From Balanoglossus misakiensis (taxonomy: Eukaryota > Animalia > Hemichordata), in NCBI GenBank assembly GCA_040954595.2, contig CM082597.2, positions 9,207,778 through 9,271,777 on the forward strand: a stretch of DNA of 64,000 nucleotides, in the 5' to 3' direction. How positions within the stretch are numbered: the stretch's first letter is position 1; each line of letters begins with the position of its first letter. The position numbers and the translations under genes were made by a program. A model generated the notes under the pieces. That model was given only the letters and a program-made list of their open reading frames with translations, was not told where the DNA came from and ran no database searches. This document shows positions 1,741 through 53,982 of the stretch, one piece after another.

Positions 1741-1744
1741 GCTC

Positions 1745-17768: not shown

Positions 17769-17773
17769 TCAGA

Positions 17774-17783
17774 TGGCGCCCAA
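17774..17783 (+). promoter_or_regulatory. Primer-binding-site-like motif
   Basis: TGGCGCCCAA 5 nt after the LTR end; resembles a tRNA-Lys-type PBS. Confidence 0.6.
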
Positions 17784-18077: not shown

Positions 18078-19941
18078 ATGGCCGAAAGTGACATATTTCA
18101 GCCTGTCGTTAGAGGGGAAGTGCCCATTCCTAGTATTAGAGGGGAGGCGTCCATTCCTAGCATTAAAGGGGAACAGCTCACTCCTAACATTAAAGGGGAG
18201 GTGTCCACTCCTACTGGCACTGTGCCACCCCCGAGGAAGGGTTTTTCTGATACAGCCACTACTGTCAAAACTGGCAGGGGTCGGGGTTTTGTTCGATACT
18301 CCCCTGGGGGTATAGCGCGAGAGCAGCGATTGACTAGTACGTTAGATGATCTCGAGAAATCATTGCATCAGAAAGAATCAGAGATTGAAAAGTTGCAAGA
18401 GTTGATGATCAAGCGGAAAAGTTAGACGCAGACGAATCAGCTATTCGTCGATGGCTGGCTCTGTCTGATAGCGACACAGCTGGTATGGCTGTAGGTGGTC
18501 CACATACGCCAGCACCTGTGCCATCTACACCTACATTATCTGGCTTTACCGAAAAGTCAGGTGATGGCGCGAGCAGTATGACTCAGGGTGTGACGCCTAC
18601 TGTTTCTTCACCCCCTGGAGCGATGGCAGCGCAAGCGAGCGATGCAATTGTTACGACTCCCCATGGTGCCGCGCGTTTTCCACATGCTGGTGCTGTGCCA
18701 GTAGCGTTTTATCAGCCGCCCCGATTATCCACTTTTTCGGGCGATCCTGATAGAAAAATGGATGTAGATTTTGAGCTCTGGAAATATGAAGTCGACTGTT
18801 TGCGGCAAGATCCCACTCACAACATGAAAGTTTTAGTACAAACCGTTAGGAAATCGCTGCGCAGGTCTACTGGCCGACTTGTCATGAATATGGGCAGTGA
18901 TGTTACGTTGGACCAAGTTTTGGATAAACTCGAAATCAGTTTCGGGGAAGTCGAAACAGGAGCGCTGTTATTGGAGAAATTCTACAACAACAGTAAACAG
19001 AAAGAGAGCGAAACAGTTTCACAATATGGAAACAGACTTGAAGCTGAGATCCACAAAATCCGCAGAAGAGGTGGGATTGGTCCCGATGCCATAGATGAAA
19101 CTCTCAAAACTGTCTTCTGGCGAGGACTGAAGTCAGACAGAGTGTTCGATGTACTTCGTTCAGCAGTCCGAAAAGGCACCACTTTTGAGGAGCTGCTGCA
19201 GTTGGCGAGAAATGTAGAACAAGAAGGCAAAGAGCGTACTGGAGATGAGAAACCCAAACGGCAATTCATAGGAAGAACTCAACAGGTTACTTCAGCCGAC
19301 GACAGTGGTAGCTCCAGTGGGAAGAATCTAGAAAGTGAGGCCATGAAGATGATAAAGTTGACAGTTGAAGGAATCCAGGGGTTAGCTGAAACAGTGAAGT
19401 CCCAAGCAGCTAGTATGAAGAGTCTGGAAACTGAAGTGAGACGCACCGCTGAACGAGTTGAAAAACTTGAACTCCAAAGAGGTGGACTGAACCGAACCCC
19501 AGAGACAGGTCCAGCACCGACCCAGAAAGATACCAGTTCTTCCAAACCATTTCAGTGCTACAACTGTGGGAAGGAAGGACATATGGCAAAGCATTGTAAG
19601 GAACCCAGGAAAGAAGATAGTAGATCATGTTTCAAATGTGGAGAGCGAGGACACATTGCGAAACGCTGTGAGAAAGCCGATCGCCACAGTTCGTCGGGAC
19701 TACCTCGTATCAATATGTGCAAACTATACCGAGGTCAGTTAGGAAGAAAACCCATTCAAGTACAACCCCAGAGAGCTGGCTTGATTGGTGGTGCTATGGA
19801 AGGAAAAATCTTCGTCGAGGGAACAGAAACGTCCTGTCTCATAGATACTGGATCCCAGGTTTCCACTATCAGCAAGAGTTTCTACGATGAGTACCTGTCT
19901 GCCTTACCCATACAGAGTACAGAAGACACCTTGACCATTAA
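18078..19941 (+). pseudogene. gag: Gag (PNMA/Ma-like capsid, two CCHC knuckles) and N-terminal aspartic protease; disrupted near 18425-18485
   Basis: [46 protein letters not shown], protease motif LIDTGSQVS. Confidence 0.9.
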
Positions 19942-20517
19942 AGGTCTCATGTCATGCTTTGGAAAGTTTTCATTTTTCCACGTCAAAAGCTCACCTAGGG
20001 TACCTGTCTATGCATTGCCTATTGTGTCGGTTCCGAAAAATGTGCGCGAATGCCGGAATTTGCCCCCTTTTTTCATGCCTGTGATCGGGGAGCCACTTCG
20101 CACTCGAGCCAGGCGAAGGTATTTGCATATGGACAAACAAGTACACTACGTCGTAGTGTACCATTCTGTTTACAGTAAAGTGTAATTATCGGTCCATGAG
20201 TAATTAAGTCCACAGACAAAGACAAGCTATATAAACAGTGTTCAAAGCAAAGGAAGCCCTTGCCTCACATTGCAGGCAGAGGATTTACAAAGGTGTGAAA
20301 GACTATTTGTCCACATCAAGATAAGTCTTCGGCTTAACTTCGAAAAGCCGAAAAAAATCAACTGAGTTGGGTTAGGGGTACACGCCCACCCGCCACTTTT
20401 ACTTGCTTGTTATCTAAGCACAAGGGGCAAAACGCATTGCAAGATAGTAACATACGTTAACTTCAAGACCCAAATAGTGATTTTACGCGTGGTTGTATAG
20501 GGCATGGCATGAGACCT
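19942..20517. mobile_element. 576-bp non-autonomous DNA transposon (Kolobok-type) inserted in the Gypsy protease
   Basis: TTAA TSD (19938-19941, 20518-20521); TIRs AGGTCTCATGTCATGC / GCATGGCATGAGACCT. Removing it restores TLTIKGANDQPIPFIGIVE. Confidence 0.88.
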
Positions 20518-20521
20518 TTAA

Positions 20522-23500
20522 GGGAGCCAATGACCAGCCGATACCCTTCATAGGCATTGTCGAGGCAGTCATGTCCTTCCCCTTGATGATTTCGGTGATG
20601 ATCGAGAATACACGATTCCTGCATTGCTTGTACCAGACAACGAGTACAACAAAGTGGTGCCAGTGTTGATTGGGATGAACCTACTTGAATTGTACCCCAG
20701 GGCTTCAATCAAGACTCAGAGACGGAGAGGAGCCAGATTGTGTAGAATATCAGCTGTTGCCGAAGGAGTTTTCAGAAAGTTAGATGCTAGAGACCGTTTT
20801 GTTGGAAAGAAAGGTGACTTGGGACCTGTACGAGCTCTGATACGACACCCAGTGAAATTGGATCCAGGACATGGTACCACTATCTGGGGACGTGCCAGGA
20901 AAGGACTGCTGGGTGATCAGTATATTGTCTCAGTGGAGCCGACCTCTGAAAATTCAGGAGACTACACCACGAGTCCTGCAGTTTCAGTTTTGAAATGTCA
21001 ACAACACAAGTCGAAAGTGCCTGTGTGTGTGCAGAATATGTCGTCCACCCCAGTAACCATTCGACCGGGGGAGATCATAGCTAGAGTACATGTTGTCACT
21101 TGGTTTGGTAGACCAGATGAGTATGCTGCTGTTATGGAAGACGCCAGTGACACCGAAGGCAAGCCAACGTCATCAGGGAAGTCTGTACCGAGTTCGAGAA
21201 AGATAGTCCTGCAGAGTGGAATAGAATTCGACGTGTCCAATCCCCGATAGATGAGATGCAACTGAAGAAAGTGTCTGATCTTCTACAGCAGAAAGAAGAA
21301 GTCTTTTCCAAACATGAAAACGACTTAGGATATAGCTCCGTCGAGAAACACAAGATTCGCTTGTCCGATGACCAGCCGATCAGAGAGAGACATAGAAGAA
21401 TCCCACCCGCCATGTATGAGGAGGTGCGGCAGGTTTTGAGAGGAATGCAAGAAAGTGGAGTAATTCGAGAATCTCATAGTCCTTGGGCGGCGCCCATAGT
21501 ATTGGTCCGCAAGAAGGATGGTCAGACCCGACTGTGTATCGATTATCGTAAGCTGAATTCTCGTACAATTCGTGACTCGTACGCACTGCCAAGAATCGAT
21601 GAGAGCCTAGAAGCCATTGGAGGAGCAAGGTGGTTTTCCTCTTTGGACCTAAAGTCGGGATACTGGCAGATCGGAATGTCCGAAGAAGATATCGAGAAGA
21701 CAGCTTTTTTGACACCAATGGGATTTTGGGAGTGCACCACCATGCCCATGGGTTTGACAGGGAGCCCTGCCACATTTCAGAGATGCATGGATAAATGTCT
21801 AGGAGATCTTCACTTGAACGTTTGCCTCGTATACCTCGACGATATCATCATTTTCTCCAAAACGTTTGATGAGCATCTGGAGCGTTTGTCACTAGTTCTT
21901 GACCGACTCAGAGAGAAAGGCTTAAAACTCAAACCGAGTAAATGCCAGCTGCTTAGATCCAGAGTCAAATACTTGGGCCACATCATATCCGAGAATGGCA
22001 TTGAGACTGATCCTGACAAAGTTCGCGCCCTGAAAGAATGGAAGGTACCCACCTCTGCTAGAGAAGTCAAAAGATTCCTAGGCTTTGCTGGATACTATCG
22101 ACGCTTCGTCGAAGGCTACTCCAACATTGTGAAGCCCTTGAACGAGTTGACAGCCGGATTACCTACCAAGAGAAAAGCCAATGGTAGAAGCCGTGAAAGA
22201 CCATGTAGATTGCCACCGTTTGAATGGAGACCAGAGCATCAGAAGGCGTTTGACACAGTCATAGAGAAACTTACCAGCCCACCCATATTGGCGTATGCTG
22301 ATTACAGTAAGCTGTTCGAACTCCATACCGACGCAAGCCACACTGGATTGGGGGCTGTGTTGTACCAGGGAGATGGAGAGCAGAAGAGAGTCATCATGTA
22401 TGCTAGTAGAAGTCTGTCTCACAGCGAAAGGAATTACCCGGCACACAAACTGGAATTTCTCGCACTCAAGTGGGCGGTGACCGAAAAGTTCCATGATTAC
22501 TTGTATGGAAACAAATTTCTGGTAGTAACAGACAACAACCCACTGACTTATGTCAACACTACCGCGAAGTTAGACGCAACGGGTCATAGATGGCTAGCCG
22601 CTCTATCAACCTATGACTTTCAGCTGATGTATAGACCAGGAAAGCAGAACAGCGACACTGATGGACTATCACGCCAAGTTCCTAAAGTTCCACAGCGCCA
22701 GAGATTTGAGAGAAGAGAAGAAGTAGATACGAAGATGTCAGAGCCAGAAGATGAAGCAGTCCTCCTGTCGGAAGAAGTAGTTCGAGTGATGTGTCAGACC
22801 CCTCAGGTATCCAACCATGCTTGGGTGGAGGCGATAACCTGTACAGAGGACTCAGTTCCCAAGAGTCTGGATGAACCCCTGTCTGTTCCCGGTGTAGTGT
22901 CGTTACCGGCTATCAGTGGAAGAAACTACAAGAGGAAGATCAGATGATAGGAAGACTGCGTTGGTATTTGAGCAGAGGACACTCTCCAACAAAGGAAGAG
23001 AAGGAGAAGGAGACGAGTTCCCTTGTTGCTGCATCGAGAGAATGGAACCGAAACTGCTTTCGAGAGGGAGTATTGTACCGAAAGAGACAGAGTCCCGAAG
23101 GAAAGCCGCAATATCAGCTAGTCTTACCAGCTCATTATCGTGGTACCGCACTAGAGGGAATTCACGATGATGTAGGCCATCTAGGACAGGAACGAACACT
23201 GGAATTGTTACGAGCCCGATTCTATTGAGCATTCATGAGTAGAGATGTAGATCAGAAGATCAAGACATGTGAACGATGTACTAGAAGAAAACTACAGAGC
23301 AATCAGCAGGCCACAGCTCAGATGGTTAGTATCCAGACTACTCAGCCCCTGTAACTAGTCTGTATGGACTACCTTACTGTTGAGGACTGAAAGGGAGGAG
23401 TAGGGAATATTTTGGTCATGACGGATCATTTTACCCGTTATGCCTTGGCGATCCCGACAGCGAATCAGAAGGCCAAGCCTACAGCCGATCATCTGTACAG

Positions 23501-25087
23501 ACACTTCCTAGTTCATTATGGTTTTCCCAACAAACTGCACTCGGACCAGGGAAGAGATTTTGAATCTCAGGTGATACGTCAGCTCTGCGAGATCACTGGG
23601 ATAGAGAAGACCCGCACTACTCCGTACCATTCCCAGGGCAACGGACATTGTGAAAGGTTCAATAGGACGTTACTTGATATGTTGGGGACGCTGTCGCAAG
23701 ATAAGAAGTCAAACTGGAAGAAGTACGTTGAGCCGCTCGTCCACGCGTACAACTGTACACAGAACGATGCCACTGGTTTCTCGCCGTACTACCTTATGTA
23801 TGGAAGACATCCAAGACTTCCTATCGACATATACATGGGTTTACAGTCAGAGACGGAGGGAAGTGGATATGGTAGTTATGTCAGTGAGATGAGAGATCGA
23901 CTAGCCGACGCCTACAAGCTGGCTGCAAGCAAGTCCAGAGCGAGTTCTGCCCAGAACAAGAAGAGATATGACAAGAAGACCCAGGAGGCTATGTTGGAGC
24001 CAGGAGACATAGTTCTTGTGAAGAATGTTAGCATCAGAGGGAAACACAAAATCGCCGACAGATGGGAACGCCAGTGTTACCGAGTGATCCGAAGAATCAG
24101 CCCTACACCGTGAAATCTGAAGGACCTGATGGAAAAGAGAGAACTTTGCATAGGAACCTGCTTTTACCATGTAGTACTGTGCCTATACAGTATCCAGAGA
24201 GACCCATGAAAGCATGCAAAGAAGAAAAGATCAAAGGAGAGATGGATGGACCCAGAACTCGTAGTCGAGCGAAGATAGAGAAACAGAAAGATCAGTATGA
24301 CGATGACTCAGATGAAGAGACTGATGGAGTATGGAAGATACAAGTTCCCTAGGAGATTGGTGGAGTCAAACAGTTTGGTACACCTTTCAGTCAAACTGAT
24401 ACGCTGGTGGATAGTCCTAGAAAGAGCTTTGCAACTTCTCCATTGCTGAAGGTGGACACTCCTCAGAAATCTCCAAATGGTAGAAGAGTGTATTTTGAGA
24501 GTCCAGAGATGCAGTTGTCACCGACTGAGGATGAGACGAGTATTGTGTACGAGACTGAAAATGAAATTTCTGGTGGACCACAGACATCTCCAGGTGTCTT
24601 GTCTCCAGATGCACCAGTGTTTGTCCCGACAGAGCAGTCATTACCAGAAGAATTGGAGCAGGAAGAGTTGTCTGATGATTCAGCAGTATCAGATGCCGTT
24701 GATGATCCTGATAGACATCCTTCTATCCAGATCGATAGAACGCTACCCAGAAGGTCCCATCGAGTTCGAAGACCGCCTGAGAAGCTGAACCTTTCTCATA
24801 TATGTACAGGAAGAGATGGTAGAACAGATGTCGATGAAGAATCGCTGAGAGAACTCTTGTCGAGAGTTATGGTCCTCTTGAGGAGGGAACGAGTGACGAG
24901 CAGCGGTCTAGAGAAAACAGATGCTACAGAATCTGGAATAGATGCAGATTTCAGTAGATGTGCCGGTTCCGAAGATTTGCTACCAGATGCAGACCAGGAA
25001 CAAGCTGAGAGGATTGATGCTTTGATCCAGGCGAAGAATGACGTGCACTCGAAGCTATCCAGTGGTACGTGCCCATGGTTGACGTGA
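20522..25087 (+). pseudogene. pol: Pol: protease C-terminus, dUTPase-like domain, RT, RNase H, integrase and long C-terminal tail; several stops and frameshifts
   Basis: RLCIDYRKLN, LDLKSGYWQ, YLDD, TDASHTGLGAVL, HDDVGHLG...C..C, HSDQGRDFES, GHCERFNRTL, RRSHRVRRPP. Stops at ~21250, ~23228, ~23354, ~24352. Confidence 0.93.
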
Positions 25088-36112: not shown

Positions 36113-39100
36113 CTTGTATGGTGGCGCTGTTGATCGGCAGCCTCTCTCTTTCACTCTCTCAGATTTTATCGATTTTACCGTTTTAACCTGTGTATTTCCC
36201 GTCGATTTTACACATCCTGCTTTTTAAACATTTGCTGCCTTGGATTCTTCACAAAATTTGGAACTTTACCATGTCTGGAAGCAGTATTTACTCAATTATC
36301 AATGCCTGGCAGTCCCTGGGTGTAAGTAGAAGTTCTTTCAATATGGCGACGACGTCCCTTCGTTCAACTATGAATACCAAGCTTTTTCGACCACGCGGGC
36401 GTAAAGCGGGTTTCAAGCATCCAAAGCCAAGGTATGGAATTCAGACGATCATAAGTAATCACCGTAGGCCTACTGGACATATTCGACATAATAATTCACG
36501 CACAAGAGTACTTCGTCTGATTCCGGTCTCTTCACAAGGTAATTTATTCAACGAACCGGCTGCCATTGAAACTGTAATCACCACTCGCTCTACACAGACA
36601 CCTGGACACAAGCGAACTTCTACACTTGTCAATATTCCAAGAATTTCTTCCTGCTTCAACAAACTCAATCTTAATGCTGCTCTGTGGAATGCCCGTTCCC
36701 TGAATGGTAAAATTGGTGCTATAGCATCTACTTTGCTCGAAGGGAAATTGGACATAATGATCATAACTGAGACCTGGCTGAAGAGTCAGTTTGATCCTGT
36801 CATTGCTGAACTCCATTCTACAATCAGTGGGTACAATTTTTACCATCAGTCCCGCTCTCAGCGACGAGGGGGAGGGGTAGCTGTTTTGGCTCGTTCTAAC
36901 CTAAGACTTGTGGAAAAAGGATCAACGCCGTTCCAGTCCTTCGAATCGTTACACGTAACATTTAAATCCTCAAGTCAGACTCTCCGCATAATCGCCGTCT
37001 ACCGTCCACCAAAATCGACAAAAAATAAGGCGACCACAAACGATTTCATCTCTGATTTTTCCACTCTTATGGAAACAGCCGTACCTTCCTCGGGCCATCT
37101 CTTAGTTGCTGGAGATTTTAATTTTCCAGTCGAGAACATGAGTTCTCCGGACACAAGTAAGTTGGTCGACCTTCTTCAATCCTTTGGCCTACAACAGCAC
37201 GTTAAGATACCAACACACAGCAAAGGCCACACATTGGATCTACTTATAACACGTTCATCAGAGCACCTGCTTCACTCAATCAGATCCGACGACTCGCTAA
37301 ACTCTGATCATAGTATTTTATATTTTGGACTTAATGTTCAGCGATCGCCCAACACCAAGGTAACAATTACACAACGTGACTTTCGTACAATGAACACTGA
37401 TAAGCTGGTCGATATACTCTCATCCGAAATGCCCAATCTTCCCAGCATTACCAACCCAGACGATTTGTACCATTATTTCCATGGAGTTGTTACCGACGCC
37501 CTTGATGAGGTCGCCCCCGTCAAAAGCAAATCAGTCCTAAATAAAGTGCGTGCACCATGGTTCTCTGAGGATTTACTAACTATGAGAAAAGAGTTACGTC
37601 GACTGGAAATAAATTGGCGTAAATCAAATTTGGAAATCGATCGCCAAATGTTCATTTTTAAGCGCATGGAATATTCACGCCGATGTGACGCATTAAAAAC
37701 AGACTATCACCGGATTAGAATTGAAGACGCAGATAACAAGAAATTGTTTGCGATTGTTGCAGAACTGTCCGATTCGAGAAAAGCATTATCCAACTCCATT
37801 CCGAACAACGTACCAACAAAAGAAATTCCATCAGCCTTCATGAATTATTTTGAAAACAAGGTGTCGCAACTCCGTGACAGGATTGGTCCACAACCGCACA
37901 GCTGTGAGGCTGACATAACACCGACTCATACTTTCGCGGAATTTGACCCAGTGTCACCTGGGGATATAATTGCGTTAGTGAAACAATCACCACCGAAATC
38001 TTGTGAACTCGACATTCTACCATATGGAGTGTTGAAGAATTGCGTACACATCTTAGCACCTTTCCTTGCTGATCTTTTCAACAATTCGCTCACAGCTGGC
38101 ATCGTGCCGAGTCATTTCAAGTCAGCGATAATTCGTCCATTGTTAAAGAAAGTTGATCTGGATCAGAACATTCTGAAGAACTACAGACCGGTTTCAAACC
38201 TTCCGTTCTTGTCAAAACTCCTCGAGCGTGTAGTCGTTCAGCAACTGAACAGTCACCTCACTAAATTTAGTCTTTTCACAAAGTTTCAAAGTGCTTACCG
38301 TGCTAATCATAGCACGGAAACTGCTCTCTTGCGTGTCCACAATGACATCATGCTTGCCTTGAATAACAAACAGGATGTAATTCTTATCATGTTAGATTTA
38401 TCAGCGGCGTTTGACACTATCGATCATGAAATAATGCTACAGAGACTACATCATCGTTTTGGAATAACTGGTAACACTTTATCGTGGTTTCGTTCGTACC
38501 TCGTTAATCGCCAACAGTGCGTCAAGGTTGGATCTGCATCATCCCCAAGTTCTCGCATGAAATATGGCGTTCCACAAGGATCTGTTCTAGGACCTCTCAT
38601 GTTTACACTCTACACTGCACCTCTGGAAGACATCTTCGGAAAACACGGGATTGATTGCATGATATACGCGGACGATACGCAAATTTATGCCATCTGCAAC
38701 AGCCCTAACGATGTTCGCAATAACATTGAGCTCTGCGTCGATGATATCCGCAGCTGGATGAAATCTAACATGCTTGTACTGAATGATGATAAAACTGAAG
38801 TTATTCACTTTTCATCACGTTTAAAATCTAATGTGACAACATTAGACTGTCTAAGAATCGGACAATGTGACATAATTCCTTCAGTTTCAGTTAAAAATCT
38901 CGGCGTTATTTTAAGTCAGGATGGTAGCATGTCTGATCATATTAGTAAGCTGTGCAAAAATGGTTTCTTCTCTTTGCATAGAATAGCTAAAATTCGTAAT
39001 CTTCTTGACAGATCTACAACTGAGAAACTAGTTCATGCATTTGTAACGTCTCATTTAGATTACTGTAATAGTCTTTTGTTTGGTATCCCGAAGGGACATC

Positions 39101-39619
39101 TAGCTCGACTTCAGTCTCTACAGAATGCTGCGGCGAGGCTAGTTACTCGTACGCGCAAGTCCGATCATATCACACCCATACTCAAAGATTTACACTGGCT
39201 ACCGGTAGAGGCCCGCATCAGTTTTAAAATTCTCTTGCTCACATTCAAATGTATCAGTGGTAAGGCACCCGCCTATTTGACTGATCTTTTACATTTATAT
39301 GTACCAGCTCGAGAACTGCGCTCTAGTGTTCAATTCTTTTTAACTCATCCTCATGGTAAATTTAACAAAACCTACGGACAGAGAGCTTTTTCAGTTTGTG
39401 CGCCCATTTTATGGAACAATTTACCCCTTGATATCAAAACCGCCAGAAGTGTCAATATTTTTAAGCGTAATTTGAAAACATACCTTTTTACTCGGTTTTA
39501 TGTGTAACGTGTTCGATTGTGTCCTTTTAACTATTTTTACCAGCCTTGTATTTTTTAATCTACTCTTTTAGCTATGTACAATGCGCTGAGACGTATGTGT
39601 AGCGCATTTTAAACAATTC

Positions 39620-41384: not shown

Positions 41385-41720
41385 TCACTCGTCCAATTCC
41401 ATAACTGTTGACGCTCTCTCCTTCATCCATATTTCTCCATCTTTAGTTCTGCTAAAGATAATTTTGCCGTCCTTCTTTTCGACCACGTAACTGCAGTTGT
41501 CCGAGTCATCCGTGTGACTGGCCGCAACCTCATCGACCCACTGCTCAGAGCCATCTTGCCTTTTCACACAGATCGTATATTTGCCCGGAGGGGTCGCGAT
41601 GTTGACATAGTTACCGCTGGCAATCACGTGACTCTTGACATCTTGATTGGCGTCTGTCAGTGTGACCTGAATGGGCTCGCCAGTTCCGTTTGCGATGCTA
41701 GTAGTGTGCTGGTTACCCAT
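41385..41720 (-). CDS. Small 111-aa beta-rich protein with N-myristoylation motif, unknown function
   Basis: Clean ATG-TGA ORF starting MGNQHT (MGxxxT) with alternating beta-strand pattern; splice acceptor ttcctacag ~35 nt upstream suggests a spliced 5' UTR. Confidence 0.65.
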   Translation of the reverse strand: MGNQHTTSIANGTGEPIQVTLTDANQDVKSHVIASGNYVNIATPPGKYTICVKRQDGSEQWVDEVAASHTDDSDNCSYVVEKKDGKIIFSRTKDGEIWMKERASTVMELDE

Positions 41721-41730
41721 GTATCTAAGG

Positions 41731-42620
41731 TCAAGTGCTGTGGGCCCTATATTTTCTGTAGGAATAAATCAAATGTGGTATACTACAAAAAGTATTGAAA
41801 CTAGTGAACGTATGGACAATCCGATGACCCTTACAGATCTTGAGAATAACGGTCGGTTTCTTTGAATGCAATAGATTATACGGCAAACGTACATGCGGAA
41901 GTGTGACCCAAAAGTGACCGATATCACTAGGAGGCTTGAATGTATTTAGGCAAGCCTTATTGTGAATCGCAACGTATTTCTCAATATGTAACATGTTCAA
42001 TATCATGTTGATGTTCACTGTTACTTTGGACCTTTATCCACGAAAGGATTATTTATTTTGAGTTCTTCAAGGGTCTGTTTCAGTGTTCTCATCATACGGG
42101 CATGACTGGCTGTGGTAACGCAGCTGTACCGTTGTGTGTGTATGGGGGGGGGGGGGTTGGCTGATTACCTCCACGGACAGCTGCGGGACAACCACCTTAC
42201 TAATAGTGCAGTTGCAACGACACGTCTGGTGTAGGAACATTAGAACGGCAACAAAGTGAGCGCAGTTCAATAAACCCGCTGGAGTGTAATGGAGACCTCA
42301 CACAACAGGAGTGAGTGAGGGTCAAAGTCCACTGCCGTAGTGTTATTCCGTGTACTCGGGTAGCACTCCTTGGAAAATCGGCTGGAATACGTAAACAGAC
42401 CAGTGAGTTTGTTCACGAAATGACTTTTGGGACCAGAAATAATCAGAGCACAGGCTTGTATAGGTCGTTTTATTGAATTACGCTCGCTTTGTTTTCTGTT
42501 GCCGTTCTTTCCACCAATAATTCGTAGTCAATTTCACTTGTGCGTGTTACGACCGGTCCCGATAAAATAGCCGAGTATGGGCCATCATTCATACGATTCA
42601 GCTCGAAAAGATATAGCATC
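41731..42620 (-). pseudogene. Decayed ORF divergent from the 512-aa gene
   Basis: Minus strand reads MLYLFELNRMNDGPYSAILSGPVVTRTSEIDYELLVERT..., then frameshifted pieces continuing into ORFs 42270-42067 and 42018-41731. Confidence 0.3.
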
Positions 42621-42708
42621 GCATGACAATCATTTATCTATTTAAAGTCGCTAATGTACGTATATACGTGGGCATAGAGAGGGGGAGAGAGTGAGAAAGA
42701 GAGACAAA

Positions 42709-44247
42709 ATGGCGTTCACATACTTACACTTTAATATTTTTTCGGTATGTCGGCTAACGTACATAACAGTCCACAGTCAAGAAGAAAAGAAACCCAAAGT
42801 ATCCACATTGACAGGCATTCGGAAAAAGCGCCCGAAACCACACTTATATTCTTACGAATCTGTCACACATTTAGGAGAACATATGGCTCGAAAGAGTTCA
42901 AGTATTTTCGTGACTTTGTTCGACAGACAAGTATGTGAAGGCGGATTCACTTTAGACCATTGGTCTTTCACGAAACCTCCTCAAGAACAAATTGTGGAAG
43001 TCACGAAAGTTGATCATACTTTAGGGTTTTGTGGAACCAATGGATCTTCCGTGCGTCCGATCATTGAATTAGTATATGTTGGTACGGATATTTTGCCCAG
43101 GAAATTTTCTAAACGAGCCACCGAAGACCCCGTCCATCTTTCTGTGAAATCAGTACACGCTATAAAGGCGTGGCTTGGGAAACATTTACCAGAAAAGTCA
43201 TCTCCTTGTTATCGTTGGACAGCTTGTAATGTAGCTATCCCGACGATAGCGATGACGTTGCTAGCTTCGGAAAGATCAAATTTACGGTGGACCAAAAGCA
43301 CCTTTGAAGATTACATGGACTTATGCTGGTTTCTCGCGCAACAGGTGTATGGATCTCAACCAAAGACAGTGCTGCATTTACTCAATATAATTGGCGTTAT
43401 ATCACACATATCTCCACTGCAGCCCGAAAGTCTTCTATTAGATCATGTAAAACCAGATGGGTCTTATTCTGGTTCAATATTGGAGACATCTTTATTTGCC
43501 GTCGAGTTACTCTTGGCTGCGTTTAAGATGAGATATAGAGCGAAACAGTTTAATGGCGTTTATGACATATTTCACCCCGCTTTAATCGAAATACAATATG
43601 CTGACGACATTGAGTATATTTACCCGTGCCTGATCGCAAAAAGTACTTTAAAATTAATTGAGTTTGGAAACCAGACAATTTATGTCGACTTTGGACAAGA
43701 TTTGTTCATAAAGAGTCTATTACATGAGTTTTGTTACCATTCAAATGTGGATACATTTCCGACCTCTCCCTTGGGATATACATTTCTGCCCTTACAAATG
43801 TGGTTTTCTCAACTAAGAGTAAAAACTCTGTATTATATGCGTAATGATTGCTCCAAACCGTCAGCGGTTGTTTTGCGTGGAACAACTATAGTTGAAACGC
43901 TGCGCGTTCGGTATGGCGTTCGAGTAATGCCGACAGACCAGTTTTACGCGGATAGCTTTGGACAACTAGTGAAACGCCTGTCGCTACCTGAGGTGCCGTT
44001 GATTACGGAAGTACATGTAGATCATTGCGAAGATAACAGCCTCCCAGCGACAGAGACACATCCGTGTTGCTTGCATAGGCTGTATGGTAACGCGCGAATG
44101 TTTCAGAACCATAAACTAGATCATTTTCTGCGGGACGAGAAGTTAGACGCGCGTACACATATGCTTAATCTAGTCACGTCTCATACAAAAATGTCACATG
44201 TCATTAAGTTTTTCGTGACGTTCCTACGGGAACGGGATACAAAATAA
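42709..44247 (+). CDS. Orphan 512-aa protein, putative viral gene
   Basis: Uninterrupted ORF, ATG in AAAATGG context, basic NLS-like KKPK..RKKRPKP, AATAAA overlapping the stop (44243-44248); no TE motif recognised. Confidence 0.75.
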   Translation: MAFTYLHFNIFSVCRLTYITVHSQEEKKPKVSTLTGIRKKRPKPHLYSYESVTHLGEHMARKSSSIFVTLFDRQVCEGGFTLDHWSFTKPPQEQIVEVTKVDHTLGFCGTNGSSVRPIIELVYVGTDILPRKFSKRATEDPVHLSVKSVHAIKAWLGKHLPEKSSPCYRWTACNVAIPTIAMTLLASERSNLRWTKSTFEDYMDLCWFLAQQVYGSQPKTVLHLLNIIGVISHISPLQPESLLLDHVKPDGSYSGSILETSLFAVELLLAAFKMRYRAKQFNGVYDIFHPALIEIQYADDIEYIYPCLIAKSTLKLIEFGNQTIYVDFGQDLFIKSLLHEFCYHSNVDTFPTSPLGYTFLPLQMWFSQLRVKTLYYMRNDCSKPSAVVLRGTTIVETLRVRYGVRVMPTDQFYADSFGQLVKRLSLPEVPLITEVHVDHCEDNSLPATETHPCCLHRLYGNARMFQNHKLDHFLRDEKLDARTHMLNLVTSHTKMSHVIKFFVTFLRERDTK

Positions 44248-44260: not shown

Positions 44261-44297
44261 TTTAAACGTGTAGTCAGAAATTACATAGTACAAGAAA

Positions 44298-47175
44298 ATG
44301 GCAGGGTTAGACCATCTATACCAATTTGCCGTCCTGCTTCCGTTTCACGACTCGATCTGTAAGTATACGGGTGAACCGAAATCGCCAAAAGACTTTCATT
44401 CCGTGTACTTCTGTACAGGTGACCAATCATCGTCTACTCATTGCGAGGTTTACGCAGTTCCACCGGGTGAAAACGTTCCCTGGAAAATGTGTGATATTCC
44501 AACCAGCACCAATCTCGTAGAAAAATGCAACAGAGGCAAAAATATCATGATATCAAAATCTGCGTTTAGAAATGCCCAATGGAAACGCGGTGCGTTCCGA
44601 AAGAAGTCCCGGAAAACACCGCAAAATTTAGGCTCCGCCCAAGCTATAATGGCTATCGCAAACTTGTATTATACTCGTGCGATCTGTACTGAAGATATAC
44701 ACGTACAAGTTTTTATACAGGAGAAATATGACATATTCAACGAGGGTGGATTCCGGATAGAACTATTGCATGATTTTTCGCACGATATTGACCGAGAAAT
44801 TGGTGAATGCCTGGTACAGACTCATACAAACTTATCGATCTTTGGTAAGAACAGATTACACATTCGGTTTTGTTTAGGGGTTAGGGTTAGGTGTTAAGAT
44901 ATCTATTTTTAGAGTGATGAATCCAACTATATTATTACGGAACGCTACATGGATTAAACTTAAACTCTGACTTGTTGATGTTTTCTGGTTTATGCACGTA
45001 ATAGGATATCCCAAGGTCCTACACTACAAAGATCCCGTCCCAGCCAAGGTTAATAAAGAGTCGGTGATGACAGCTTTGAATACTCCGGACAACTGGAGCG
45101 TTTTAATTGAATTTAACCCCGTATTGCGAGACGTACAAGCGTATAGTTTACAAGATCTAAACGTGTGTGCCGAGTGGGGTCACAGAGGTACTTCGAACAT
45201 TCTGTTAATTTTTGCGATGGACAGAGATCGAGAAAATATGTTTGTGTTGTTATGGGCGTTACCGGCAAGTGACATTCGCAAGGCGTATATGCCAAATTCC
45301 GCCGACACAGAGGTTGTGATTTCTAATGATGTATTACAGAATGCCACGTTCGTATTTCACGTGTTGCATGCAGCGTCACCTTTACATAGACGCTGTTCAT
45401 ACGCCAGTAAGTTTCGACTGAAGAGAGATGCTATCAGTTCCAAACGAGCTATTGCCATGTACCCAACTTACAACGAAACACATGCCCACGTGTTGGTAGA
45501 GTGGAAACAAGATCGTTGTCAGTATATGCGAAATGGTGCACGTATTTTATTCGCGTACAATATTAACAGTAATTCGAACGCCATCATTTATGTTAAAGCC
45601 ACGCCCAGTTTTTTACCGCGTAAAATAGCAACGTGTGAAATTCCCAATGATATATTACGCTCTGTATCAAATGAGACAATCATTCCGCCAGGAATCTTTG
45701 CGGAGGCGCATTTTTTAGAAACTGCGTGGGACTGGAACGACGAAATACCGACGGTCCAATTAAATCCATTTCAGATTATATACGCAGTGAAGGCTTTGTT
45801 TTCGGTGGGATTTGGTCAAGACAAGGATTGGAATCATCGTTTTGCCGCAAGCAACGCGATTTGTTGGCCGTCTGATGACGTCATTACCACAACAGAACAA
45901 TCATTCCTAAATAGGTGCTTTAAATCGCCCACATTTTCAACATGGACAGACGTAGAAAACGACATATTGTGTCAGGGCGACCGATCATATTCAAACCTAT
46001 ACTGTCACGCTGACAAATGCACATATTGGTTAGCTCATCAGAGAACTTTCGTGGTTGTCGAGTCCAAACCATCGATTGAGTCTTATTTGACAACCCCTAC
46101 TCGAGTTTTATACGTCGCAAACAAGTGGCATCCCGGAGCGGGGATAGCAGTATATTCGTGGAAAACTCGGGATATTCCGCGCCCACTTGCTATTATCGAT
46201 AGATCTTCAGAATCGTTTGACAATATTTGGTCGATTTTGGGTAATTTTTCACGCGAGTGTATTGCTTTGCGCAACATACCAATGAATGCCAACAGAATGC
46301 AGACAGACTTACACTTTGAGGGTCTACACGCGCAATCCGTCAAGCATTTCGTGGAAAACCCCGATTCGAAAATTTTCTTTGACGCTGGTTTCTTGTCATC
46401 GGATTCCAAGTGGTTCCCGGAAGCGTTCGCTATCTGGGAATATCCTCAGATCGAGGGACATGCGTGGGGGTTTGTCAACATGCTACAACGAGCCGTTTCT
46501 GTGTACGCCATGTATCAGAAGTATGCATGTGGTTTTACCATAGAACAACCGGTGGCAAAACTAATGCAAGAAAAGATAGAAATTGCATCATGTGATCCAA
46601 ATGCGGCATGTCTACAAAAGATAAACACTATGGTCCGTAATGAATTCGAGAGAGCAGAATTGGTCTTCTGGTCGGCGTTGGTTGAGTTCAGACAAGATGT
46701 TAAACATTACGTTACGGGATTACCGGTGGAAGTTAAATTCAGTTCAGGTGACATAGAAAAATCGAACAAACTATGTTGTTTCACTTTGGTTGGTACACAC
46801 ATACGACCCTTTTTGATTGCGCACCTGGACAAAGACGAAAGTTTGGTTGAAATGGTAGTTGATCTAAAGGTGCTTAACTGTAATTATTTCAACCATGCAA
46901 TGAGTTCTAACCAATTCTACGTTAACTTCGCGTATGGTATAGACACTTTCTCGTCCAGATGCCAACAAATGAACCAGTTTGAAATACTGGCTTGTTTATG
47001 GGCGATGGTAGAACAACGGGGTCACACCATGAACGAAACATTGGTTAATCTGTTGAAGCGTCACATGGTAAAATACTTTGAACAAGACCTGACGTGCCCT
47101 GCCACTACACTTTCAGGCTTGCAGGTATGGGCGAAAGAGTGGCTGGATTCTCTCATAATTGACACATCCCTGTAA
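44298..47175 (+). CDS. Orphan two-exon gene, predicted 905 aa (exons 44298-44844 and 45005-47175), putative viral gene
   Basis: Donor G|GTAAGA at 44845, CTGAC branch-like site at ~44967, acceptor ATAG| at 45004. The phase-1 join rebuilds GGA and fuses the 199-aa and 727-aa ORFs in frame (NLSIFG-YPKVL). Confidence 0.75.
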
Positions 47176-49432
47176 TTGGCTACTGCCGCCAAACAAGACC
47201 ACCGCCCGGGGATATATCCGTTGGGGATACACTCGGCGGCCGTTGAGGGCGTATGTATTCCTGTCGGACACAATTCCAATGGACTAACATAGTTATATGT
47301 CTGTTAGTACACGTCAGCTGGCATAGCCGGAAAACACGACCAGGCTACCTGCAGAAAGAGTGGCTGGATTCTCGCATAATTGACACATCCCTGTAATTGG
47401 CTACTGCCGCCAAACAAGACCACCGCCCGGGGATATATCCGTTGGGGATACACTCGGCGGCCGTTGAGGGCGTATTATTCCTGTCGGACACAATTCCAAT
47501 GGACTAACATAGTTATGTAATAGAGAACCACCGACCCCCGAGGTGGTTCTTGGTTTCGATTCGCCGAGGGCCGCAGGCCCGAGACGATTGGAAACCAAGA
47601 ACCACTGAGGGGGAGGTGGTTCTCTAACTTAAACCACGATCCCCCACAGACATTGTCACCATTGGAGCTTCGTGTACCACAAAGACGTCGTTTTACTCAA
47701 CGATTCAATAAAATGAACGAACAAAAGCTTATCAAAAGAGGCTTATTCTTCATTGCTGACTGTGAAATTTGGTTGGCCACCCCTTTTCCTATAAATGAAT
47801 CATGTCGTGGGCAGGTAGTTCTAGACCGCCCTGCTGGGCCTTACAAGATCGCCCACGCTTGACAGGTGTTACTCTAAATGTTCATACTTACGTGTCGGAG
47901 TGATATGCTCATTTCAAGCACTAATTTGCATCAAATTAAACTTTACAGGTGTGTTACGTAGTGTATTATGGGAAGGGTTACAGCTATTGGGGTTTTGCGT
48001 GCACATGGTAAGCTTACGCGAAAATTTTCTAGGCCAAATGCAGTAGGCCTACATGTAAGTGTCACGTTTTTTTTATTTTCCTTCAAATGTCCATGAAATC
48101 GATCTGAAGATACATGTAGTTCCGATCTATATCATCTGCGAAAACAAGCGGCTACATGTTGGTAAAGCAAAAACCGGGTCACAATGCTCTACATGGTACT
48201 ACTGCCCGTCTGTGTATTGGCCTCCCTGGCTTTTGAACGAACCACTCTCTACGAGCCACAGCGGCAACGCGTCTGTATGGTAGCGATATTGGTGAGTAAC
48301 TCATCTGCGAAAAGACTTGATACCGAAGTGAATCCGTCCGACATTACAAACCCACGTCTGGTGAACAGCAACAAAAAGTAAGCACAACTTTGCAAGGTAC
48401 GCGGGTTTTGTTAAACAGTAGGCCTAAAACAGCCATCCTTGTTACATGTCGGTAGTGAAGCAAAATCGAAGTGAAGCATCTGGTTAGAGTAATACAAGCA
48501 AATCTGGGGATAATGTGATTTAGTATAATTTTCTAGAAATTTGTAGTGAATTTATTGCAACGTTAGTTTGTTTCTGGTGAATTGATTTTTGTCTATTTTA
48601 TACTTTTATTATCATGTTATGAAGACTCTCGAGAGCCACCAAGACATTAGCTTTGTACGTCAGTAGACAAAACTGTGAATGTGAAGCATTGAATGAAATG
48701 ATCCGGAGACTGTCGCATATCCAGTTCGCTTTCAATTAACATAAAAATTACTCTATTCAAATGAAATGTACTTTGAATACAGGTATAGAAGTAAATGTAA
48801 TTATGCAAATAAAGCATTGTGTATTTGTATTTTTGTTACGACAGGTGAGACTGAGTCCTGCGGTAGTTCTAGAACCCCCGGAGGTAGTTCTAGAACTACC
48901 CGGGACTTGGTTTTAAACCTGTGGTTTTGTGTGAGACGGAGGTTCTCTCAGTGAATGACTTGTCTATTGAATAGTGTGACGTCACGATCGTGGTTTAAAT
49001 GTCTGTTAGTACACGTCAGCTGGCATAGCCGGAAAACACTACCAGGCTAACCGCAGAAAGAGTGGCTGGATTCTCGCATAATTGACACATCCCTGTAATT
49101 GGCTACTGCCGCCAAACAAGACCACCGCCCGGGGATATATCCGTTGGGGATACACTCGGCGGCCGTTGAGGGCGTATGTATTCCTGTCGGACACAATTCC
49201 AATGGACTAACATAGTTATATGTCTGTTAGTACACGTCAGCTGGCATAGCCGGAAAACACTACCAGGCTAACCGCAGAAAGAGTGGCTGGATTCTCGCAT
49301 AATTGACACATCCCTGTAATTGGCTACTGCCGCCAAACAAGACCACCGCCCGGGGATATATACGTTGGGGATACACTCGGCGGCCGTTGATGGCGTATGT
49401 ATTCCTGTCGGACACAATTCCAATGGACTAAA
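47133..49432 (+). repeat. 221-bp tandem repeat, ~3.7 copies, second copy split by an insertion
   Basis: gaaagagtggctggattctc starts at 47133, 47354, 49056 and 49277 (period 221). Confidence 0.93.
47517..48998. mobile_element. 1.48-kb non-autonomous hairpin-ended element (Helentron/Crypton-like structure)
   Basis: Inserted in agttat|atgtctg of the repeat with no clear TSD. Left ~105-bp hairpin agagaaccacc...ggtggttctct, then ttaaaccacgatc inverted-matching gatcgtggtttaa at the right end. Confidence 0.75.
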
Positions 49433-49451
49433 CATAGACAGTTACTAAACT

Positions 49452-49463
49452 TTTATTAATAAA
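49452..49463. terminator. Back-to-back polyadenylation signals for the convergent genes
   Basis: TTTATT (49452-49457) abuts AATAAA (49458-49463), between the 905-aa gene (+) and the terminase (-). Confidence 0.6.
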
Positions 49464-49670
49464 TGTGTGCTTACCGAATAAAATATCTCTTAACATTCAA
49501 AATGTGTGTATGGTTATTTCGATCGAAGCAATTACAATTGATAAAAAACAGACCTCTGTGTCCTGATTAGCGCACTTTCACCTTGGGATGGTCAATGCAA
49601 GGTTTAAAAAGTCACAGCCAAATGGCGTTACAACTTGATATGTCCTTGAGCTCCTTTCGTTATATGTCTG

Positions 49671-51659
49671 TTAGTATAAGTCAGCTGGTATATCCGGAAA
49701 ACACGACCAGGCTAACCACAAAATGAATGCCATGGCCAAATCGTCCCGTTTATTTAAAGCCTTTCCATTAAAGGACATTTTCCCGTCCACTTTAATACTC
49801 CGTTTAAAATCGCGCAACTGCGACAGAAGAATTTCCATCATCGCATTTTGATCGTCTTGTGTCGGGGGCCTTGACATTCCTGAGGAATTCGTGAGACACT
49901 TGCGTACACTAATTAAATCATTTGCGAATGATACTAACCCGTTTGTTACCATTAACTGAGCTAGGTGAACTAGATTTGCTTTATTGCGCGTCCAAATGCC
50001 AGTTTTCATCTTTCCGTCCCTTCCGGTTTCTGTTTCGAAGTGTGTCAATATACCTCGTTGGTCGAAATAATCCCCTACCTCCCGAGACATTGCAGCAGAA
50101 TGGGCGTGTGACGTGTTTCGTTCTATATAGATTCGAACAGGATACTCCGATAACTTTGGGTATTGCTTGAATGCATATTCCACGGACTGGATGCACAAAA
50201 TGGTATGCTTGTGTAATAGATTTTCAATGTCACGCTGCGATTTAGCTGCCACGTGATCTAGAGCAACGATCTACAAGCGAAACAGACAAGGAAAAGTGGT
50301 TAAATCATGTAACACCTCTATACGAAACAATTAAGTTATTTTTGTATAAGAGTGAGCCTCATATGTCAAACAAAACATTTAGTGTAGGATGTTATTACTC
50401 AAAACGTTCCATCTCCAACAGCACGATGTCGACCATTTAAAAAGCAGGCGAAACGCCTTCTTCGATTGGAAATACAGTATGGATAGACAGTTTTTCTCAG
50501 AATTTATTAATGGGATCATTCAAAGAGAAGGTCATCTGTCCAGCAGTTTACTTATACGGTTTCTTGGTCGAGAGCATGGATGTCTCTACAAGGGCGTTCA
50601 CGTCCACACGATAGTTGACTTCAAGATGGAAAAAACCATCGCCTGTGAGACGTGGCGTATTTTGTCGTGTCTGGAAGATTCTGTGTCTGCCGAACAAGAT
50701 GGGTGTTTGTGCGCGTTCGAAGCAGTTTTACACAGGGCAATTGAAATGTTTTCTATAACGGTCAATGACCAGACAAACGCGTTATACAGGCGTGAAACCG
50801 CCAGGGAACTTCAGTGGATAATTGATCACATTGAAAAGACGATCATACATTTGCTTTCTCTGCATCAATTGTCAACGGACGAATCACCGCTATTAACAGC
50901 GGCATTACACATAGCTGGTATTGTAACGTGTGCAATCAGACCTCCTACCGCCATTCAATTAGAGATCCCACGTGACCGTCTCGTGATACCCAAAGTAGTG
51001 TGTAATTTGTTCAACTTAAGATCAACTGAGACACAGATTCCTTTACTCTGAGAAACAAGCATGGTATATATTGGAACAAATTAACGCAATCTACTTACAA
51101 TACGTTCATTTTACCACATTTAATTCCGGCAACTAGTCCTATGCCTGACACATTTGATGGTGTGGGATCGATTACTAGTCTGAGTCCAGATGTTAAGAGG
51201 TGCTCGCTGACGTCAACTCGTTTTTCGACCAATTTATCTAGCGTTATGTCGGCAAACAGTTTCTCGCTAGATGTATCAATAAAATCTGCCACACCGAGGC
51301 ACTCGCGTTCATAGGTTCCTTTTGCCAAGATGTCCATTAATATTCTGACTGGATTTCCTTCGCTAGAATCAATGTGCCTTGGAACCAGGTGGAGTTTATG
51401 GATACATACACCATGTACACCTTTCGATACACATTCTGAACACATGTACGTTTGAACGATCGACTTGACAAGGGGTTCCCCCCCCCCATGATATGTCCAA
51501 CAATTTATAGGACCAGTGTTCTCTGTTTGCCATAGATGAAGTAAATAAAACCGACACTGTTTTAGGCTGAAAAATGGGCGCAGAAGTGACCAATGAATTA
51601 CGTTTTACCCACGGAAACTCGTCCACCCAACCAAAACTACAACCGGCTCCTCTGGCAGC
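49671..51659 (-). CDS. Herpesvirus-type DNA-packaging terminase large subunit (UL15/UL89-like), last two exons 51659-~51104 and 50270-49671; one frameshift in a homopolymer; Walker A exon not found
   Basis: AARGAGCSFGWVDE (Walker B; cf. herpes GIRGQDFNLLFVDE), VLFTSS (cf. IIFVSS), TYMCSEC...CIH, LVIDPTPSNVSGIGLV (cf. YVDPAFT..SGTG), IVALDH, IYIERN (cf. VEGN), FNGK...RDDLAMA (cf. SGK..SDDL.VA). Acceptors tttcag|GCT and cttgtag|ATC. Confidence 0.88.
50389..51051 (+). CDS. 220-aa orphan protein nested antisense in the terminase intron
   Basis: Intact ATG-TGA ORF filling most of the 50271-~51103 intron; TATAAG at 50345-50350. Confidence 0.75.
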   Translation: MLLLKTFHLQQHDVDHLKSRRNAFFDWKYSMDRQFFSEFINGIIQREGHLSSSLLIRFLGREHGCLYKGVHVHTIVDFKMEKTIACETWRILSCLEDSVSAEQDGCLCAFEAVLHRAIEMFSITVNDQTNALYRRETARELQWIIDHIEKTIIHLLSLHQLSTDESPLLTAALHIAGIVTCAIRPPTAIQLEIPRDRLVIPKVVCNLFNLRSTETQIPLL

Positions 51660-51685
51660 CTGAAATATATAATTATGAATATATA

Positions 51686-53960
51686 CAGTGAAACCTGACC
51701 TTACGGACACCTGACAAAACCGGACACCTCCGATTTACGGACACTTTGTTAATTCCCAAATTTGTCTCATTGTAACCAATGGGTCTGCGTCCTGATCAAT
51801 CCGGACATCTCTAAAATGCGGACAACGGACAGCTGTTCGATACAAAATGCGTAGTTTCTATTGAAATCAACCCAACAATTACGGACAGCTGCGTGATTGT
51901 CAGACATGACACTTCGACTTATCACTCACTTCACACATCAGTGGATCAAAGTTTTCAGCTTATCACAACAACTTAGACGTGTTGACTAACCTCAAATAAA
52001 AAACACATTAGACGATCAACACGTTCCTTTTGTTAAAGCTACTGAAAGAGGCGGCGATTTGTGATAAACAAATTTCCCAGAGCCGCCTATTTTACAGCAT
52101 GACAGAATGGTTTCCGCCATTATCTTTATGGTAAAGACCAGGCTTTGGATTTGCTGCAGTTCCGTAGCCAACATCTTTCCTCGGCGGAGTTTGGTGTGGG
52201 GTTGGAAGCTTCAATGAAATTGACTATTATTCACTCAACCGCTCGGCGCTTGTTTACCTGGTGTCGCGACGTCGTGCGAGGCTGAGCTTGAGTGATTTGC
52301 GCGTCATTCTGTCCTGACCTGTTTTTAGGTTGATGTTGTTCGGTGCATTTATTTCTTACTTTTTGTAGAGTTCATGCAGATGTAAGGCATCAGAATTGAC
52401 AAAATCAGTAGCTTTCATCAGGTGGACGTTGATTTCCCCGCAGCGCAGGTCAGAACTAAAATCGGCCATCATTATCATAATTTATGCAACCTTAAATGCA
52501 GGGAGTTTGTTTCTTCTGCGTTATGGTCGAGCCATTCTGAGCGGGATGAAGCCAACAAAGTGAAAGGATACAATTCTTTTTATTTTCTCATGTCAATCAC
52601 AATAAAATGAAATAACCAATTTGTCTGTGCATGCCGACAAAATTACCAGCAGTAATTTCATTGGTTGTATGATTTCAGAATCTGTCAATCGTGCTGCTAA
52701 GTTATTCACGCACCCATCGACTTCTGGTGAACAAAACATGTCGGTTTTTCTTTTGATATGGGAGAAATAAGCTATAAAAGGAGGGAAAATTTACGTTGGC
52801 AACATAACATCTTCTGACCACAGAGCGAACAACATGTCTTCTGTCAAACGCACGCGCATCGAACTTACTATCGATCGTAAAGTTGAAGTTATTCGGGCTG
52901 CAGATTCCAGAAAGTTGAGCTGTCGGCAACTTGCAGTTGAGTTTAGCATCGGCAAAACTCAAGCCAGCACTATTCTGCAGAATAGAGACTCTATTTTGCG
53001 AGAGTACGAGTCCAATTGTGAAGGCAGTCGAAAGAGAATCTGTGTTCGCACTGAGTACGAAGAATTGAATGCACTGGTATGGGAATGGTTCCAGAAGAAG
53101 TGAAGTCAGTCAATTCCGCTGTCCGGGCCGATGATCCAAGAACGGGCGCGTCTCTATGCAGAGCAGCTCAACAAACCCGAGTTTAAGGCGTCGAACGGAT
53201 GGCTCGAGAGCTTCAGCAAACGAAACAATCTTACGTTTCACAAAGTTAGCGGGGAAAGTGCCGATGTTCCCCAAGAGACTGTCGATTCGTGGGCGGCACG
53301 ACTACCTCATCTGATCGAAGGTTATTCTCCACGCGATATCTTCAACATGGACGAGACCGGCGTTTTTTACCGCGCACTCCCTGATAAGACGTTTTCAGCC
53401 AAGGGTGAAGACTGCATGGGCGGGAAGAAGTCGAAGGATCGAATCACCGCTGTCCTCTGCACGAACATGGACGGGAGCGAAAAACTCAAGCCCATCGTTA
53501 TCGGAAAGGCAGCTAAACCAAGGTGCTTCAGCAATGTCAATCTCAACGCACTTCCAGTTCTATGGCGAAACAACAAGAAGGCGTGGATGACAACGGAACT
53601 TTTCATAGACTGGCTTCGAGATGTCGACAAGAAGATGCGGCAACAGAAACGGAAAATTCTGATGTTCGTCGACAACGCCCCAACCCATCCTCAGCGTGCT
53701 GTCTGTCTTACCAACACGAAGTTGATTTTTTTCCCTCCGAATACGACGTCGAAACTGCAGCCACTCGACCAGGGGATTATCGCGGCCATGAAGAAAACAT
53801 ACCGCAAGCGACTTCTCCGCGCCGTTTTGTCGAAAGCCGACGATGACACCTTAGTTAGAATGAAATCGCAAGAACTGTCAACGTTCTCGATGCCTGCCAC
53901 TGGATCGCTCGGTCGTGGAGTGATGTCACCAGCGAGACCATTTCGTACGGTGGACGATAC
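51686..53960 (+). mobile_element. pogo/Tigger DNA transposon, right end missing
   Basis: TA followed by TIR CAGTGAAACCTGACC..CGGACAC with repeated cggacac motifs; inserted 26 bp from the terminase splice acceptor; transposase downstream. Confidence 0.88.
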
Positions 53961-53982
53961 CGACACTCCTCTGCTATGCTAA
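52834..53982 (+). pseudogene. Tigger/CENP-B-like transposase (HTH psq, CENP-B HTH, DDE_1)
   Basis: LTIDRKVEVI..LAVEFSIGKTQASTI, FKASNGWL, FNMDETG, NKKAWMT, VDNAPTH, QPLDQGII; in-frame TGA at 53101-53103 and a frameshift near 53850. Confidence 0.92.

Follow-up and report, generated by a model that had tools for sequence, protein, structure and literature searches.

We consider it probable that a herpes-like virus has left a broken copy of itself embedded in the window, as the whole 64,000-nucleotide stretch of DNA analysed here is called, and that this copy includes the 3' half of a terminase gene of herpesvirus type. Its two GT-AG, phase-0 intron sites match introns of known herpesviruses, with which they were likely inherited from a common ancestor, and in intact copies both introns are likely spliced by the host.

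Two terminase exons and their splice junctions

The terminase is present as two minus-strand pieces (Table 1). Acceptor 1 reads TTTCAG/GCTGCC at 51659 (the slash marks the junction) and opens an exon that begins A-A-R-G, with the Walker B residues D-E as codons 13-14. An initial annotation had placed an exon start immediately before this segment, and the junction on which it relied recurs in two related loci, L002 and L003. Acceptor 2, TTGTAG/ATC at 50270, leads into an open frame of 199 residues with the IERN and DDL motifs; the IDP motif belongs to the closing part of the middle exon. These three motifs, together with a profile match to UL15 and UL89, are those of an RNase H-like nuclease: a profile of the last exon and nine relatives gave E values of 3e-7 for HSV-1 UL15 and 1e-4 for HCMV UL89. 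In the PDB, UL89 and UL15 ranked first for a structural model of the last exon (pLDDT 63), with no match at E 0.001 or better, and among viral models ranid herpesvirus proteins came first (best E 1.5e-3). Among solved structures, no match was found for the last exon alone or for the middle-exon, nested-gene, UL92-like and L005 queries, and searches for longer homologues found none.

A second intron had been predicted between K-C-G-K-M-N and I-V-A-L-D-H. Its acceptor at 50270 stands, but its donor had to be moved: GTATTG at 51103 seems in frame only owing to a break just upstream, and the true donor is GTAAGT at 51098, which is also used in L002 and L003. The latter had been set aside as out of phase; it lies 561 bases from acceptor 1, a multiple of three, and is in phase. 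Intron 2 has GT-AG ends, a pyrimidine tract and a conserved position and phase, the features of a U2-type spliceosomal intron, and intron 1 is visible by its acceptor only. Judging from these sequence features, both introns would be spliced.

A profile search for exon 1, the Walker A exon, with a profile almost all of orthoherpesvirus origin and run without a positive control, did not find it in the window, in L002 (1.9 kb above the acceptor) or in L003 (8.8 kb above and 10.5 kb below). Because exon 1 was found in none of the three, a distant or trans-spliced exon 1 is plausible, by analogy with mirusviruses, in which this has been demonstrated, and ranid viruses, in which it has been put forward.

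Were the gaps secondary insertions in a dead copy, rather than introns, the decayed and insertion-bearing state of the window copy would be in keeping with them; however, the same junctions and the nested gene recur in three further loci as well as in known viruses, and a deeper contig in X1 covering 49505-51685 keeps an identical layout, so that this reading is ruled out for practical purposes. The introns proposed initially hold both against this deeper contig and against the related loci, which are split at the same sites and not contiguous (L002 and L003; acceptor 2 in L004).

Table 1. Coordinates of the terminase exons, introns and adjoining features in the window
Feature	Positions	Strand	Remarks
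530-aa frame	42655..44247	+	No Pfam match; depth raised as for the terminase; likely viral
202-aa frame	44289..44897	+	No Pfam match; likely viral
734-aa frame	44971..47175	+	No Pfam match; tail to tail with the terminase; likely viral
Repeats and gene-end duplications, ~2.2 kb	47165..49363		Between the 734-aa frame and the terminase 3' end
AATAAA, likely poly(A) signal	49452..49457	-	~215 bases past the terminase stop
Last terminase exon	49671..50270	-	Unbroken frame of 199 aa covering most of the nuclease domain; phase-0 acceptor TTGTAG
Intron 2	50271..51098	-	828 bases; GTAAGT...TTGTAG, phase 0
Nested antisense gene	50389..51051	+	220 aa, predicted all-helical; inside intron 2; placed like IcHV-1 ORF70
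Middle terminase exon	51099..51659	-	561 bases; Walker B to first nuclease aspartate; broken in the window copy
Intron 1 remnant	51660..51685	-	26 bases; acceptor TTTCAG
pogo/Tigger-type DNA transposon	51686..53982	+	Inserted after TA, 26 bases above acceptor 1

Damage to the window copy and its surroundings

The three acidic nuclease motifs lie where the initial annotation had placed them, but the middle exon is not intact. Read in its starting frame it meets a stop at 51398, and the frame changes at two homopolymer runs, one of 10 bases (51478-51487) and one of 4 bases (51109-51112). The transposon above acceptor 1 carries a DDE_1 transposase frame (53104-53982); one of its terminal repeats was found and the second was not.

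Depth was taken from the DNA contigs of three runs from one sample of one study, possibly the source sample itself, with the stretch present in two of them, X1 and X2. In X1, the stretch 49505-51685 is covered by a single contig of depth 166, whose next 1063 bases are unlike the window; the transposon has a depth of 24-26, so that the deeper contigs stand about six-fold above it. In X2 the corresponding depths are about 320-650 versus 83-85. The transposon is absent from the deeper contigs, and these vary in length at the frame breaks (at both in X1, with one seen in X2). Several further copies, integrated or free, are likely, although depth is no copy number. Among the 17 differences listed from a deeper contig, the ratio of synonymous to non-synonymous changes is 5:4 in the last exon and 3:5 in the nested gene, counts too small to read.

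It is doubtful that the two frame breaks are homopolymer assembly errors in a copy otherwise intact apart from the transposon. Both breaks do sit in single-base runs and the window version of either is seen in no listed contig, but contigs drop rare variants; moreover, the window copy bears the transposon, whose junction is bridged by one X2 contig, and differs from a deeper contig by a 20-base difference in intron 2, the 2.2-kb insert and about 1.5% of other positions. As it reads, the window copy is a pseudogene or misassembled, and could not make the protein.

The surrounding DNA is animal and rich in LINE, Gypsy and pogo elements. A Gypsy-type LTR retrotransposon at 18389-25087 (+), with a PNMA-like gag, zinc knuckles and an integrase, is spread over several frames; a LINE endonuclease-reverse transcriptase frame of 1106 aa at 36187-39507 (+) is apparently unbroken; and a second LINE reverse transcriptase piece lies at 2-1840 (+). 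No tRNA and no telomere tract were found in the window. The CpG observed/expected ratio of 0.66-0.81 in three flanks, set against the vertebrate range, leans towards an invertebrate host, and the host is probably an invertebrate.

Only about 10 kb of the viral element is visible within the window: between ~42.6 and 51.7 kb, a compact block of open reading frames without Pfam match adjoins the two terminase pieces. None of the three large flanking frames (530, 202 and 734 aa) could be tied by Pfam to a core gene of the Alloherpesviridae, a family with twelve such genes (PMC12567609). To their left, in a stretch of raised depth, is a 127-aa frame (41388-41768, minus strand) that may belong to the viral element, whose left end is not fixed. 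One deeper X2 contig skips the ~2.2-kb repeat block (47165..49363). Within 47133-49729 the 3' end of the terminase is present as four partial copies and that of the 734-aa frame as two; these end copies around high-depth repeats are a local rearrangement.

The intron sites in related loci and named herpesviruses

A metagenome scan yielded four related loci, L002-L005. Searches of viral_contigs at the protein level turned up no true relative, and L001 and L006, terminases of prokaryotic viruses, were dropped. In L002 and L003 the three junctions are all present and in phase 0 (CAG/A-S-R-G, /GTAAGT and AG/I or V-L-A), with an intron 2 of 676 and 634 bases, respectively, and L004 has acceptor 2; protein identity to these three loci is 40-75%. 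All eleven middle-exon homologues end in hydrophobic-V-S, the read-through of GTAAGT, and diverge thereafter (one is L002's own), and Q/ASRG is found in all three that reach the start. Likewise, the nine last-exon relatives are all pieces of 140-230 aa that start at or after the acceptor 2 boundary. Altogether, a dozen or more relatives without a name are present in public data. The terminase of L005, a distant one, is not split and runs through site 2 with no missing stretch; a single frame (L005:2191-4122) carries its Walker A, Walker B and nuclease motifs, and it is probably mirusvirus-like. L003 also encodes an OTU-like protease, an Ig V-set domain, a protein kinase and a Kelch/BACK-like protein (7101-7880, 10576-11238, 16188-18125 and 18699-20570), on weak to moderate Pfam matches.

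Site 1 is common to all the herpesvirus groups compared. In a motif scan whose pattern included the R-G to D-E spacing and not the upstream AG, the AG ended 6 bases before the R codon in 45 of 45 orthoherpesvirus-type loci, which, counted from R-G and Walker B, is the very base at which it ends in the window; the equivalence claimed initially with the start of HSV UL15 exon 2 is therefore sound. A second scan, again with AG absent from the pattern, gave the identical acceptor in 10 of 10 alloherpesvirus-type loci, four of which open with A-A-R-G (L052, L054, L057 and L058). The R-G that precedes Walker B has the window's spacing in all 55 loci, and the middle-exon profile recovers both kinds, matching alloherpesvirus exon 2 at E 6e-5.

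Site 2 is distributed more narrowly. It is split, with an antisense open reading frame inside, in five of the nine alloherpesvirus-type loci that cover it (L052, L053, L056, L058 and L061); L054 ends earlier and was left out of this count. In the five, an in-frame GT follows D-P by 25-30 codons (four GTRAG, one GTTTG), compared with 22-23 in the window group, and the acceptor precedes hydrophobic-x-small-L/V-D/E. The other four (L055, L059, L060 and, by eye, L057) run through the site, and three cyvirus loci are contiguous there with no missing stretch. L057, of cyvirus type, lacks site 2 and has other introns inside the exon-2/3 region; therefore 'three exons' is not one layout across the alloherpesviruses. 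The orthoherpesvirus UL15/UL89 genes have two exons and, unlike the window, no intron at site 2: 44 of the 45 loci were shown to be contiguous there, with no missing stretch. The terminase of oyster herpesvirus, a malacoherpesvirus (the family of OsHV-1 and AbHV), is not known to be spliced.

The closest named counterpart in layout is IcHV-1, the catfish virus, whose ORF62/69/71 arrangement in three exons had been invoked initially and is described, with like arrangements in ranid herpesviruses and in SalHV-1 (ORF72/80/82), in PMC3230846. Its terminase shares with the window group both intron sites, phase 0 and the A-A-R-G opening of exon 2; between exons 2 and 3 it has, like the window, one antisense gene of about 225 aa (ORF70), and a Cys-rich gene stands next to acceptor 1, as in L002 and L003. 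The nested gene has 220 aa in the window and 227 in L052, which is taken as IcHV-1. The two differ in that protein similarity is distant, the window group forms a separate clade in both trees, the nested genes are not significantly alike and the host of the window element is likely not a vertebrate, whereas alloherpesviruses infect fish or amphibians.

A second counterpart is Teratorn, an endogenous alloherpesvirus of medaka, which has the same acceptors, the antisense ORF78 in intron 2 and the Cys-rich ORF79 beside acceptor 1 (PMC5601938). Inspected by eye in its GenBank record, the acceptors read CAG/A-S-R-G and CAG/I-M-S-L-D, the donor follows G-G-K-L-V, and exon 1 appears to lie downstream of exons 2-3. 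The window shows no fusion to piggyBac such as Teratorn's in the ~10 kb seen, and its pogo element is a later insertion. In Teratorn subtype 1 (~150930-151120; PMC5601938) the middle exon is unannotated and looks, by eye, much shorter than in a second record. Both intron sites of the window, in position and phase, thus coincide with introns of known herpesviruses, as had been proposed.

Herpes-like DNA has also been reported from invertebrate genomes. Starfish and ribbon worms carry embedded herpesviral elements that branch deeply, outside the named families (bioRxiv 10.1101/2025.04.19.649669), in a study that by its own statement left introns aside; malacoherpes-like elements are described from lancelets and an annelid in PMC5552708.

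The Cys-rich neighbour of acceptor 1 can be followed across part of this range. Directly above the acceptor, an antisense gene rich in Cys is found in both L002 and L003, with 24% identity between the two; that of L002 is Pfam Herpes_UL92 (E 2.5e-8), that of L003 has no Pfam match, and no UL92-like gene is present above acceptor 1 in the window. In 13 of the 45 orthoherpesvirus-type loci, a UL92-type antisense gene with the Cys motif lies no more than 1.5 kb from the acceptor. Eight of these neighbours were aligned; every one belongs to Pfam UL92, and their match to the L002/L003 pair has E 0.0017. Of six alloherpesvirus Cys-rich neighbours, none matched Pfam UL92, and profile comparisons gave E 0.023 and 0.21. 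These neighbours are antisense in L052, L054 and L058 and on the same strand as the terminase in L053, L056 and L061.

The nested frame is conserved in antisense orientation in L002 (34% identity, E 4e-30), L003 and L004. Its profile showed no significant match to the five alloherpesvirus nested genes (E 0.18; cross controls 0.83 and 0.65). A fold search with its structural model placed IcHV-1 ORF70 at rank 30 of 71 (E 6.1, TM 0.27 over 212 columns), a weak predicted match to be used as a lead only; the model (pLDDT 69) had no viral-structure match at E 0.001 or better, and its best PDB match, at Z 5.4, would be ordinary for helical bundles. In the Atlas it gave low-recognition helical matches only. 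A homing endonuclease in intron 2 was considered and rejected, the nested gene matching no nuclease family or fold.

Two trees were built. The middle-exon tree (34 rows, 189 columns) took in 14 of the 45 orthoherpesvirus-type loci, the 10 alloherpesvirus-type loci and 6 of the 11 protein matches, and gave support of 97/95 to the window group, 99/96 to orthoherpesviruses and 54/47 to alloherpesviruses. The last-exon tree, made by a quick method from 30 rows and 221 columns (11 orthoherpesvirus and 8 alloherpesvirus rows, with P0001-P0003 left out), contained four separate groups: alloherpesviruses (SH-aLRT 99), orthoherpesviruses (96), the window group (96) and P0006-P0009 (99). Both trees are short and unrooted, carry long-branch warnings and are without malacoherpesviruses and named mirusviruses. 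The P0006-P0009 proteins are a fourth group of split last exons, apart from the alloherpesvirus, orthoherpesvirus and window groups, and one of them is on an 86-kb contig. P0007 reads F-K-Q then V-L-G-L-D, as if acceptor 2 were present; it fell into unnamed or phage-like clusters in the Atlas and had no match among phages.

In each tree the window group stands alone on a long branch, and on the unrooted last-exon tree the eight alloherpesvirus rows make up one side of a branch with the window group outside. The sequences suggest that the element is its own clade outside the Alloherpesviridae, with the monophyly of that family standing at 54/47 on the middle-exon tree. The initial description of an alloherpesvirus-like three-exon layout was therefore right as to both intron sites; exon 1 was not found, and the trees place the element outside the family. 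Filing it under the Alloherpesviridae was rejected on the last-exon tree, although the ictavirus and batravirus intron sites are present, and the Orthoherpesviridae were rejected on the extra intron and on its position outside that clade in both trees.

We regard it as possible, though not favoured, that the element is a very divergent alloherpesvirus or a sister group, in which case the three-exon layout would be ordinary inheritance with little bearing on the herpesvirus root. The two sites and the nested layout are the same, the first four residues equal those of L052, L054, L057 and L058, the last exon finds its best fold matches in ranid herpesvirus proteins, and alloherpesvirus monophyly is poorly supported (54/47) on the middle-exon tree; yet the alloherpesvirus branch on the last-exon tree (SH-aLRT 99, 8 rows) excludes the window group, whose long branch recurs in both trees, and no alloherpesvirus core gene could be recognised among the three flanking frames.

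Origin of intron 2 and meaning of the layout

It is improbable that site 2 was gained separately in the window lineage and in the alloherpesviruses, such as through insertion of a gene-carrying intron with a preference for the nuclease region of the terminase. Gene-carrying introns with a strong target preference do occur in the related mirusviruses, where introns are gained and lost freely (PMC12768974), site 2 is patchy among the alloherpesviruses (five of nine), and sequence comparison detects no homology between the nested genes of the two groups. Against this, codon, phase and orientation are identical, the nested genes are similar in size (220 vs 227 aa, L052), site 1 is shared too, together with the Cys-rich neighbour, and the nested protein has no nuclease match. 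We prefer common inheritance of both sites.

The mirusvirus terminases, as PMC12768974 describes them, resemble the window in being split near Walker B, where they are trans-spliced, and in having a non-nuclease gene nested at a fixed intron site in the nuclease region. The intron concerned, MING-1, is reported there to have no homologue outside Mirusviricota. It is conceivable, if rather unlikely, that intron 2 with its nested helical protein, the mirusvirus MING-1 intron and the intron that houses ORF70 in herpesviruses of catfish and frogs are all the same element, one gene-carrying spliceosomal intron at one codon since the mirusvirus-herpesvirus ancestor, later lost by ortho- and cyviruses, with the window's invertebrate lineage as the link.

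Under common inheritance of both sites, the host spliceosome would, in intact copies, splice the ATPase exon 1 to the other two exons, either in cis or in trans, and the joined exons would give the packaging motor, an ATPase-nuclease. The antisense genes would be transcribed from the opposite strand; their starts are 40-120 bases away from the acceptors, so that a clean loss of an intron would delete a gene too; we infer that the sites have persisted so long because intron loss would also remove the antisense gene. In orthoherpesviruses and cyviruses intron 2 would have been lost and the nested gene lost or moved, a direction that, for the orthoherpesviruses, is drawn from sequence comparison with unrooted trees.

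The sharing of site 1 is already published, the split near Walker B having been aligned across mirus-, ortho- and alloherpesviruses (PMC12768974). For site 2 or the nested gene outside the alloherpesviruses, no description was found in the literature, with mostly non-subscription journals covered. The reason for the splicing of herpesvirus terminases is still being asked (PMC13595911). Exact intron positions are rare, slow characters where sequences barely align, and the window lineage offers a direct test for relatives of MING-1 outside the mirusviruses. Because both sites, the nested gene and the UL92-family neighbour occur outside the named families, the three-exon cassette is suggested to be older than the Alloherpesviridae, and the two exons of the human herpesvirus gene may represent a reduced state.
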